Translations under genes and position numbers: made by a program
Notes under the pieces: model-generated
Database searches by the model: none
What the model was told of the DNA's origin: nothing
What the model saw: only the letters and a program-made list of their open reading frames with translations
Sequence record: LC519489.1
Direction: 5' to 3' (one strand)
Source of the DNA: Escherichia phage SP22
DNA length: 64,000 nucleotides
Shown: positions 20,774-22,238 of the stretch, piece by piece
How positions within the stretch are numbered: position 1 is the stretch's first letter
Layout: every line of letters begins with the position of its first letter

Positions 20774-21238
20774 TTACTTTGGATATACACTGTCAAGATA
20801 AATGTCAGCTTCCATTCTACGTCTGTTTTTCAAGCCGTTTGAAGTGACCTTCTTACCTTTGACTGTAATCTTGTTCCACCACTGCATAGCTTCTGCACAA
20901 CCTACCTTATTACCAGCATTGTGGCGCTTGATAAATGTAGAATCCTGCATAGCTGTGATACCGATGTTGTATGTTTCACTTACAAGTGCATCGAACTCAT
21001 TCTGAGAAGTTGGAACCTTGATAGCTTTGTTCACTGCTGCAACAAACTTTTCAACATCTGCGAGAAGATACTGTTCAGCTTGTTCAGCCGTGATTTCCAT
21101 ACCCATCTTAACAGGTTTCCCGTCAATACGGATTGTACCATACCCGATTGTTGGGATTCCGGCAGAGTCTTCGTAAGCCTCTAACTTAAGACCTTCAAAG
21201 AACTTAATGGCTTCTAAACCTTTTCTTGAGAGTTGCAT
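20774..21238 (-). CDS. endolysin, GH24 phage lysozyme family
   Basis: LEAYEDSAGIPTIGYGT matches the catalytic E...D...T(I/V)G(Y/I)G signature of T4/lambda-type lysozymes; 154 aa. Confidence 0.8.
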   Translation of the reverse strand: MQLSRKGLEAIKFFEGLKLEAYEDSAGIPTIGYGTIRIDGKPVKMGMEITAEQAEQYLLADVEKFVAAVNKAIKVPTSQNEFDALVSETYNIGITAMQDSTFIKRHNAGNKVGCAEAMQWWNKITVKGKKVTSNGLKNRRRMEADIYLDSVYPK

Positions 21239-21870
21239 TATTCACCTCCTGCTGGATTAACTGTAACTGTTGCCGCATTAGATGTTACCGAACCACCTGC
21301 GCCAGTTACTACACAAGTGTAGCTTCCTGCATCAGCAGCGGTTGCACCTTCTTTGGTGTAAGTTGCAGTAGTTGCGTCTGGGATGTTTTCCTCACCCTTC
21401 TTCCACTGATATCCAGTGGCGTTAGTTGCGATAACGCTTAGGGTAAGTGTGCCACCCTCATTAACTGTTTGGTTTGTCGGTTGCTGAGTGATTGCTGGTG
21501 GCTTAATAGCATCCTTCAACTTAGCATTCAGCATTGAGAAAGGTTTAACTCTTGCCAGCCATTCACAATAAACTGTATCAACGTCTTTACCATTGATAAT
21601 TGCATATTGTAAATCCATGAAGAAGTCAGAAGTTCTCATCTGAGCACCGATGCTGTAAAGCAAATCATCACTGAAAGGAACTTTGTAGTCTGGTTTGTAG
21701 TCAAACTTCTCAACCTCTGCGATATCAGCTTCAGGCCAATATGAACTATAGGTAAGTGGTAAAATAGCCTCTTGATATGTTCTAAAATCATATCTCTTAC
21801 CAGCCTTTACATTTGCAATGAAGCCCTTTACAAATTCTTTGAAGTCTGGATAAGTCTTTGCTTTAATCAT
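21238..21870 (-). CDS. paralog of the adjacent 123-aa protein with an added C-terminal Ig-like domain
   Basis: N-terminal 120 aa alignable to ORF 21867-22238; C-terminus has Ig-like pattern YQW...DAGSYTCVV...VTV. Confidence 0.45.
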   Translation of the reverse strand: MIKAKTYPDFKEFVKGFIANVKAGKRYDFRTYQEAILPLTYSSYWPEADIAEVEKFDYKPDYKVPFSDDLLYSIGAQMRTSDFFMDLQYAIINGKDVDTVYCEWLARVKPFSMLNAKLKDAIKPPAITQQPTNQTVNEGGTLTLSVIATNATGYQWKKGEENIPDATTATYTKEGATAADAGSYTCVVTGAGGSVTSNAATVTVNPAGGE

Positions 21871-22238
21871 TTCTTTTTAGCCTCTAAACGTGCGTTTAAT
21901 CTGAAATAGCCTTTATGTTGTGGAGACACATCACCAACAACAATACCTTCAACTTTATAACCCTTACCAATTACATACTGGATATCCATAAGAAACGTAC
22001 CAAGCCCAACAATGTGGAACATTGGGTATAGTAACTTATCTGAATCTGGGAGTTTAATGTCTGGGTTATAGGTAGGTTGCTCGGCAGTTGGTGTAATATC
22101 CTCTCCAGGCCATCTACTCATTCTCCATGTTAAAGGTGATGAAATAACATCGTTAAGATTGTATTTTTCACCATTCTCCACGGAGCGGATATAGGATTGT
22201 AGGAAGCAATAAAAGTCTTTTGCACTCTTAGCCTTCAT
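21867..22238 (-). CDS. hypothetical protein, paralog of N-terminal domain of 21238-21870
   Basis: shared motifs W..WPGEDI, KLPDSDKLLY, FLMDIQY, LNA(R/K)L. Confidence 0.45.
   Translation of the reverse strand: MKAKSAKDFYCFLQSYIRSVENGEKYNLNDVISSPLTWRMSRWPGEDITPTAEQPTYNPDIKLPDSDKLLYPMFHIVGLGTFLMDIQYVIGKGYKVEGIVVGDVSPQHKGYFRLNARLEAKKK

Follow-up and report, generated by a model that had tools for sequence, protein, structure and literature searches.

What are two small genes, one of them carrying an immunoglobulin-like (Ig) domain, doing directly upstream of a phage lysin gene? The question is raised by Escherichia phage SP22 (sequence record LC519489.1), of which we analysed a window of 64,000 nt; all positions refer to this window. 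A first-pass annotation had placed two open reading frames (ORFs) on the minus strand at 21867-22238 and 21238-21870, co-oriented with the lysozyme gene and immediately upstream of it, and both were found exactly there, beside a gene matching Pfam Phage_lysozyme (E=1.2e-40). We find that the second ORF very probably encodes Hex-Dec, a structural head decoration protein that works like Hoc of phage T4, and that the first encodes a second copy of its capsid-binding domain (CapBD). The Ig-bearing gene is already known and is largely explained by two structure papers of 2025 (PMC12609058, PMC11821841). The residual novelty lies in the undescribed Ig-less CapBD duplicate and in the origin of the one-Ig allele by recombination between repeats. 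The main value of the analysis is corrective, in that an odd-looking Ig accessory gene beside a lysin can be read as a solved capsid decoration protein, mostly labelled 'tail protein'. The features on which the argument turns are as follows.

22238..21867, minus strand: ORF of 123 amino acids (aa) with an ATG start, the Ig-less paralog of the Hex-Dec CapBD.
21870..21238, minus strand: ORF of 210 aa with an ATG start, very probably the one-Ig form of Hex-Dec, a Hoc-like decoration protein of capsid hexamer centres.
21505..21870, minus strand: CapBD (Hex-Dec residues 1-122) with Arg79 and Arg107, assigned by identity to 9ncf_S.
21253..21501, minus strand: single Ig-like (I-set/C2) domain (Hex-Dec residues ~124-206), assigned from Pfam, pLDDT and Foldseek.
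21394..21411, minus strand: putative in-register recombination junction between Ig repeats 1 and 4, placed by comparison with the four-repeat allele of phage Bas63.
38115..39224, plus strand: major capsid protein (MCP), the predicted binding partner of Hex-Dec, with Asp221 conserved, identified by phmmer against the PDB.

The 210-aa protein and the capsid

The 210-aa protein was searched against the PDB with phmmer and matched chain S of 9ncf (Bas63, 'Immunoglobulin-like domain protein', E=1.2e-227) and chain S of 9c2d and 9c3a (Sf14 'tail protein', E=4e-155); it also matched phrog_3995 (E=7e-121). Foldseek comparison of its AlphaFold2 model showed the CapBD to be 100% identical over the 122 resolved residues of 9ncf_S and 86% identical over 120 residues of 9c2d_S. 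Both of these relatives have been placed on capsids. In Bas63, electron cryo-microscopy (cryo-EM) resolved Hex-Dec as an ordered monomer at the centres of the facet-edge hexamers of a T=9 capsid, the product of a gene lying more than 10 kb outside the structural module (PMC12609058). The counterpart in Shigella phage Sf14, gp20, was likewise resolved by cryo-EM as a monomer in the centres of edge hexamers and was found in virions by mass spectrometry (MS) (PMC11821841). The one hint of function comes from a preprint, in which the Bas63 Hex-Dec gene (gp124, locus tag bas63_0124) scored as more essential when the host was E. coli S17-1. The description of the SP22 protein as non-structural-looking is thus contradicted by a CapBD identical to one resolved by cryo-EM and by the presence of gp20 in virions.

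The contacts that hold the protein in place are known from Sf14, where Arg79 and Arg107 of gp20 salt-bridge Asp221 of three MCP subunits; at the true three-fold hexamers the geometry of Asp221 is different and disfavours these contacts (PMC11821841). Arg79 is kept in 114 and Arg107 in 113 of 115 Hex-Dec cluster representatives, and the window protein has both. The window MCP matched 9ncf_A (E=1.4e-243) and 9c2d_A (E=6e-234) by phmmer; it is near-identical (~99%) to the Bas63 MCP and has Asp221, in the alignment KIRD(221)AYL. The 210-aa protein therefore shows all those defining features of the Hex-Dec/gp20 family that can be read from sequence. Since both partners are identical or near-identical to those of Bas63, we infer that Hex-Dec also sits as a monomer in the edge-hexamer centres of this phage. 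The CapBD would plug the centres of the 60 facet-edge (pentamer-proximal) hexamers of a T=9 capsid, with Arg79 and Arg107 forming salt bridges to MCP Asp221, and the flexible Ig (I-set) domain would point outward as a weak adhesin or environment sensor.

The Ig assignment itself is secure. Residues 124-204 matched Pfam Ig_3 (E=2.5e-10), with Ig_2 and I-set also above their cut-offs; the AlphaFold2 model is confident over residues ~124-206 (pLDDT 92-96), and in Foldseek the module resembled the MALT1 Ig C2 domain 3bfo_A (TMt 0.90, root-mean-square deviation 1.5 Å), with Robo1 Ig5 also matched. The Ig-like module proposed from the sequence thus passed fold prediction, and the accompanying remark, that phage Ig domains are generally taken to bind surfaces or carbohydrates weakly, holds as a general statement. 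Structure prediction, which had been proposed for both proteins, was less successful for the CapBD. The two AlphaFold2 models (m5e300a20069b and m16c797d52d73) match the experimental domain only approximately (TM ~0.68-0.72), with low pLDDT at residues ~33-60, and the authors of the Sf14 study likewise noted a disagreement between the AlphaFold CapBD and their density (PMC11821841). Judging from the models, the CapBD may become ordered only on the capsid.

The number of Ig domains varies among these proteins, with four in Bas63 Hex-Dec and one to three in other felixounaviruses (PMC12609058); among the best 120 database clusters, 41 were one-Ig and 75 two-Ig forms. The window gene is collinear with that of Bas63 from its 5′ end to ~nt 460-477, with few mismatches, and, reading back from its 3′ end, to ~nt 463, the last 170 nt differing at two positions, and exactly 750 bp (250 codons, three repeats) are missing relative to Bas63. 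Collinearity at both ends, together with this exact gap, means that the single Ig domain is, on the alignment, an Ig1/Ig4 hybrid relative to Bas63, taking its 5′ part from repeat 1 and its 3′ part from repeat 4. The crossover falls in a conserved YQWKKG stretch (window ~21394-21411). This comparison points to unequal in-register recombination between Ig repeats, which would supply a mechanism for the published copy-number variation. The region 21238-22238 is moreover a mosaic. The paralog gene is nearly identical to those of EC6 and Bas63 (synonymous divergence, dS, 0.013), whereas the dS of the Hex-Dec CapBD is 0.36 to EC6 and 0.09 to Bas63, which suggests a recombination breakpoint near the junction of the two genes.

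The Ig-less duplicate

The 123-aa protein aligned with the 210-aa protein at 36% identity over 121 aa (BLASTP, E=1e-16), each protein matched the other's PHROG family (phrog_3995 and phrog_4463, E ~1e-15 to 1e-16; the function of the paralog's family is unknown), and a PDB sequence search matched the 123-aa protein to 9ncf_S (E=2.4e-12). The paralogy over a domain of ~120 aa that the first-pass annotation had read from the letters is therefore borne out by proper alignment. A fold search of the PDB returned only 9c2d_S (TM 0.72) and 9ncf_S (TM 0.71), with nothing else below E=0.1, whilst in BFVD the order of matches was an Sf15 ortholog (TM 0.95), Hex-Dec proteins and then a CapBD-Big_2 ('BIG2 domain') protein of an Erwinia phage. 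No Pfam or NCBIfam family matched. The protein ends 4-5 residues past the CapBD, and the Ig display domain is not present. By homology and by fold, it is a member of the CapBD family, a stand-alone CapBD that arose as a tandem duplicate. It lacks two features that define Hex-Dec, namely the Ig display domain and the Arg79/Arg107 anchors.

Orthologs of 122-124 aa were found in Felixounavirus, Mooglevirus and Suspvirus and in a divergent 87-kb metagenomic phage, and every one noted lies immediately upstream of Hex-Dec and the endolysin; those with names are bas63_0125 of Bas63, FDI99_gp021 of Sf14, gp37 of FO1a and ORF40c of VpaE1. Across eight genomes, the median ratio of non-synonymous to synonymous divergence (dN/dS, pairwise Nei-Gojobori) was lowest for the Hex-Dec CapBD, at 0.03, followed by the endolysin at 0.09 and the paralog at 0.11, and between genera dN was 0.19 for the paralog vs 0.09 for the Hex-Dec CapBD. 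By these measures the paralog is functional, under purifying selection and faster-evolving than the Hex-Dec CapBD. A reading of the gene as a pseudogene or relic in this phage was rejected on its intact length of 122-124 aa in three genera and its dN/dS of ~0.11. Loss does occur elsewhere: ~16-20 of 252 Felix O1-like records appear, from tblastn hit counts, to be without an intact paralog, and in 20 of the 252 the best tblastn match was the Hex-Dec CapBD only. The sole such record inspected, that of phage mio (2307-2497 of the segment examined), contains a remnant which has lost its ATG and has an internal deletion of ~226 bp. Z31, REP5, REP11 and P54 likewise appear to be paralog-less.

The stop codon of the paralog and the start codon of Hex-Dec overlap as ATGA (21867-21870). 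This overlap and an accompanying GAGG motif are conserved in Felixounavirus, Mooglevirus, Suspvirus and the divergent metagenomic relative, and such conservation indicates translational coupling of the paralog to Hex-Dec. A slippery-like AAAAAG motif at 21876-21884, 3 nt before the paralog stop, was considered as the site of a programmed -1 frameshift fusing the two proteins (GCT AAA AAG AAA TGA, the -1 frame being that of Hex-Dec). The motif is conserved in the five Felixounavirus genomes examined and absent from Mooglevirus, Suspvirus and the metagenomic relative; the fusion was rejected, and the motif is probably incidental.

At the residue level, the two families have 22 invariant residues in common, many of them in non-regular, proline- and aromatic-rich loops, with W-P-E-x-D-I, Y-x-P and L-L-Y as shared motifs. 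Another 17 positions are fixed in each family but to different residues; the invariant residues specific to the paralog include G78, F74 and K92. Net charge and isoelectric point were discarded as discriminators, both families ranging from acidic to basic.

What, then, does the paralog do? We tentatively favour a capsid-directed accessory that acts transiently or sub-stoichiometrically while heads are assembled or decorated, a possible role rather than a probable one. The protein would be made from the same message just ahead of Hex-Dec, would still address the capsid hexamer centres without displaying an Ig fibre, and could serve as a placeholder, an occupancy modulator or a Hex-Dec helper, being neither a stable virion component nor a lysis protein. 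Several observations argue against stable residence in the virion. Neither of the 3-Å icosahedral maps has density on other hexamers (PMC12609058, PMC11821841), and the Sf14 table of structural products does not include the paralog (PMC11821841); both main texts, like the Sf14 supplement, are silent on it. Following a virion study of VpaE1 by liquid chromatography-mass spectrometry (LC-MS), detected ORFs were renamed 'structural protein' and ORF40c is still 'hypothetical', an indirect indication judged from the names. The wV8 paper held no relevant virion data on the paralog.

A number of points weigh against this picture. The virion MS support for the paralog's absence is indirect, as noted, and its binding to the capsid at any stage is inferred only. 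One of the two reported anchor arginines is lost: the position aligned to Arg79 is Gly in 44 of 45 paralog representatives (Gly78 here), and that aligned to Arg107 is Gln, His or Arg across the family (Gln107 here). The AlphaFold2 model is of only moderate confidence (overall pLDDT 74.6, pTM 0.75), with residues 33-60 poorly predicted. A sigma-70 scan gave no promoter between the paralog ATG and the terminator-like hairpin upstream of it. On the Hex-Dec side, no finding speaks against the identification, and the weak adhesin or sensing role given to the Ig domain is suggested by analogy with T4 Hoc only.

The paralog might instead have been neofunctionalised for a target other than the capsid (lysis regulation, host takeover or anti-defence), keeping the CapBD merely as a scaffold. 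We consider this doubtful, although it would fit with the higher dN and dN/dS of the paralog, with the 17 family-distinguishing positions, which include the change of Arg79 to Gly, with its dispensability in some lineages and with its place beside the endolysin and amid small accessory genes. However, the tight translational coupling to Hex-Dec is kept across genera, and the residues in common with Hex-Dec are in loops without regular structure, a pattern that as a rule points to binding being shared as well as the scaffold. The protein also has no transmembrane-like segment (maximum Kyte-Doolittle 19-residue score 1.34) and no Pfam or NCBIfam match (PADLOC was not searched). As the CapBD profile found only 12 members among 1.84 billion representative proteins, there is no distant characterised homolog from which a function could be borrowed.

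Less likely is a regulatory version of capsid binding, in which the centres of procapsid hexamers, or of the true three-fold hexamers, are bound by the Ig-less paralog, which thereby dictates where and how densely Hex-Dec attaches. If true, this would explain the restriction of Hex-Dec to only 60 edge hexamers, and a duplicated 'blank' decoration protein would be patterning the capsid surface. It is rather improbable that the paralog is a stable decoration of the virion, whether as a 'bald' plug on the 20 true three-fold hexamers, at sites near the portal, or as a competitor of Hex-Dec that sets the density of Ig fibres. The CapBD fold and loop motifs common to both proteins and their co-translation would suit such a plug, as would the three-fold hexamers themselves, since the Asp221 geometry there disfavours the Arg79/Arg107 contacts (PMC11821841) and it is exactly Arg79 that the paralog has lost. 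However, the maps that report no density on other hexamers contain strong, sequence-assignable Hex-Dec density on the edge hexamers, and the paralog is neither among the Sf14 structural products nor re-annotated as structural after the VpaE1 study.

Two further readings concern the Ig-bearing protein as well. That it is a small non-structural protein acting close to the lysis machinery or together with it, or serving in adsorption without being part of the virion, is very improbable; adjacency to the endolysin and co-orientation with it are conserved across Ounavirinae, but cryo-EM and virion MS place orthologs on the capsid (PDB 9NCF, 9C2D), and membrane segments are lacking. The maximum Kyte-Doolittle 19-residue score of Hex-Dec was 1.04, against 2.34 for a membrane control, although no dedicated transmembrane or signal predictor was run. 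As neither protein has a transmembrane-like segment, a lysis-membrane role of either is unlikely. The control was a 167-aa ORF (17399-17902, minus strand), a likely membrane protein with its peak at residues 84-102. The weakest reading, that both genes encode tail proteins, is scarcely credible, for although most GenBank, RefSeq and UniRef records and PHROG 3995 use names such as 'tail protein' or 'major tail protein', and the Ig domain resembles those of siphophage major tail proteins (phrog_158, phrog_853), the similarity to tail-protein PHROGs is limited to the Ig module (residues ~96-208), the name has been called a mis-annotation carried by most genomes (PMC12609058), and the capsid reconstructions contradict it.

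A capsid-directed accessory remains our preferred reading of the paralog. Going beyond the published structures, the hypothetical gene upstream of Hex-Dec can be recognised as a copy of the capsid anchor that stands alone and is kept by selection, which bears on how T=9 capsids come to be decorated at specific sites. Biocontrol of Salmonella and E. coli makes use of Felix O1-type phages, as does phage display-like engineering, and for such purposes it is of practical value to know which anchor and which head sites are free.

The gene cassette and its conservation

The three co-oriented genes are flanked by hairpins, as follows.

20774..21238, minus strand: GH24 endolysin of 154 aa, the third gene of the cassette (Pfam Phage_lysozyme; phrog_7 endolysin).
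22262..22277, minus strand: terminator-like hairpin bordering the three-gene unit on its 5′ side, a short way upstream of the paralog (consensus scan).
20747..20764, minus strand: strong intrinsic-terminator-like hairpin and T-run right after the endolysin stop (consensus scan).

Hex-Dec and the endolysin overlap by one base (TAATG at 21238). The hairpin after the endolysin has a 7-bp stem with 5 GC pairs, followed by TTTTTTTTTC, and in Citrobacter phage Michonne terminators are annotated at both matching places flanking the triad. The paralog, Hex-Dec and the endolysin probably form one terminator-bounded unit. A shared transcription unit would account for the position of Hex-Dec beside the lysin, and the lysis-proximal position pointed out in the first-pass annotation is conserved synteny and gives no evidence of a role in lysis. 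A candidate promoter motif, TATTTATAAG, shared by 22247-22256 and 23373-23382, was rejected, as it has 8 matches vs 9.5 expected and the flanks do not align.

A megablast search with 20000-23500 retrieved 252 phage records (best identity 95.5%), nearly all named as Escherichia, Salmonella, Shigella or Citrobacter phages, and the taxonomy of every record inspected was Ounavirinae (Felixounavirus, Mooglevirus or Suspvirus). By sequence, the window is that of a Felix O1-type myophage of the genus Felixounavirus. One record among the Felix O1-like matches, 'Staphylococcus phage SA1', is the best match for both ORF40c and the MCP of VpaE1, and its host attribution looks wrong.

In the distant members of the family, the CapBD is joined to Big_2 (Kolesnikvirus-like), an I-set Ig or a Lys-rich tail. 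Erwinia phage Fifi318 (2501-3638 of the segment examined) has a single CapBD-Big_2 gene immediately upstream of its lysin gene, and in a metagenomic relative (6001-6968 of its segment) the same place is taken by a single CapBD gene with a Lys-rich tail; neither has a second CapBD ORF. Both share the syntenic neighbourhood, with DUF5681 in each, DUF2828 in the metagenomic relative and tRNA genes close by in Fifi318. The presence of a single CapBD gene beside the lysin in distant relatives means that the linkage of decoration and lysin genes is old and predates the duplication. From these comparisons, the single-gene arrangement is the older one in the subfamily, the duplication that gave the Ig-less copy took place inside the enterobacterial Felix O1-like clade, and the CapBD anchor is a portable module whose display domains can be swapped.

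In the window, the cassette adjoins a divergent intergenic region beyond which 25 tRNA genes are clustered (25634-31973, plus strand). Immediately before the cluster is a gene for a 471-aa DUF2828/DUF7788 protein (23948-25363, plus strand), named 'RNA-binding protein' or 'vWFA protein' in relatives, and next to it one for a DUF5681 protein (23496-23867, plus strand); both neighbours are kept in distant relatives. On the other side, the ortholog of a 129-aa ORF (19943-20332, minus strand) is called 'D-alanyl-D-alanine carboxypeptidase' in some GenBank records. This annotation looks doubtful, and the ORF had no Pfam match at E<=0.01. In the divergent 87-kb metagenomic relative, a gene with a match to Gad1 (PF25705, anti-Gabija) was found ~4 kb downstream of the lysin (11510-12369 of the segment examined).

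Comparison with known systems

The closest known systems are Hex-Dec of Bas63 (bas63_0124, 9NCF chain S, Escherichia phage JohannRWettstein) and gp20 of Sf14 (9C2D/9C3A chain S). These belong to the same family as the 210-aa protein, with CapBDs 100% and 86% identical to its own over the resolved domain; Arg79 and Arg107 are shared, as is the MCP partner with its Asp221, and the gene is likewise placed between a 123-aa ORF and the endolysin. The window protein differs in having one Ig domain, an Ig1/Ig4 hybrid relative to Bas63, where Bas63 has four and Sf14 three. The paralog is more distant, being a CapBD only, at 31-36% identity, and without the Ig domains and the Arg79 anchor.

Moreover, a single CapBD gene per genome, with no Ig-less duplicate, is found in Kolesnikvirus (Erwinia phages phiEa104, E5AFW9, and Fifi318, gp116) and in the metagenomic proteins P0174-P0178. 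Their CapBD is homologous (profile E 6e-9 to 6e-5, Foldseek E=2.4e-3), and where the flanks are long enough to judge, in Fifi318 and the P0177 phage, it occupies the same position directly before the lysin, but it carries Big_2 or a Lys-rich tail instead of the I-set Ig.

With T4 Hoc, Hex-Dec shares a monomer at hexamer centres that displays a string of Ig-like domains of varying number and is at least conditionally dispensable (PMC12609058, PMC11821841), and the PHROG 'Hoc-like head decoration' families (phrog_2973, phrog_4069) match its Ig part (residues 125-207). However, the domain order is reversed, the CapBD being C-terminal in Hoc and N-terminal in Hex-Dec, and the Hex-Dec CapBD is larger, pseudo-two-fold and topologically distinct (PMC12609058). 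Only the Ig part matches Hoc 3shs_A, and that marginally (E=0.037); Hex-Dec binds edge hexamers only. The architecture is that of T5 pb10 (PDB 5LXK, 8ZVI), whose Ig domain is homologous (E ~1e-11 over residues 131-207), but the matches cover the Ig only and no similarity was detected between the capsid-binding domains. Taken together, Hex-Dec resembles T4 Hoc in how it works and T5 pb10 in its architecture, but belongs to neither family.

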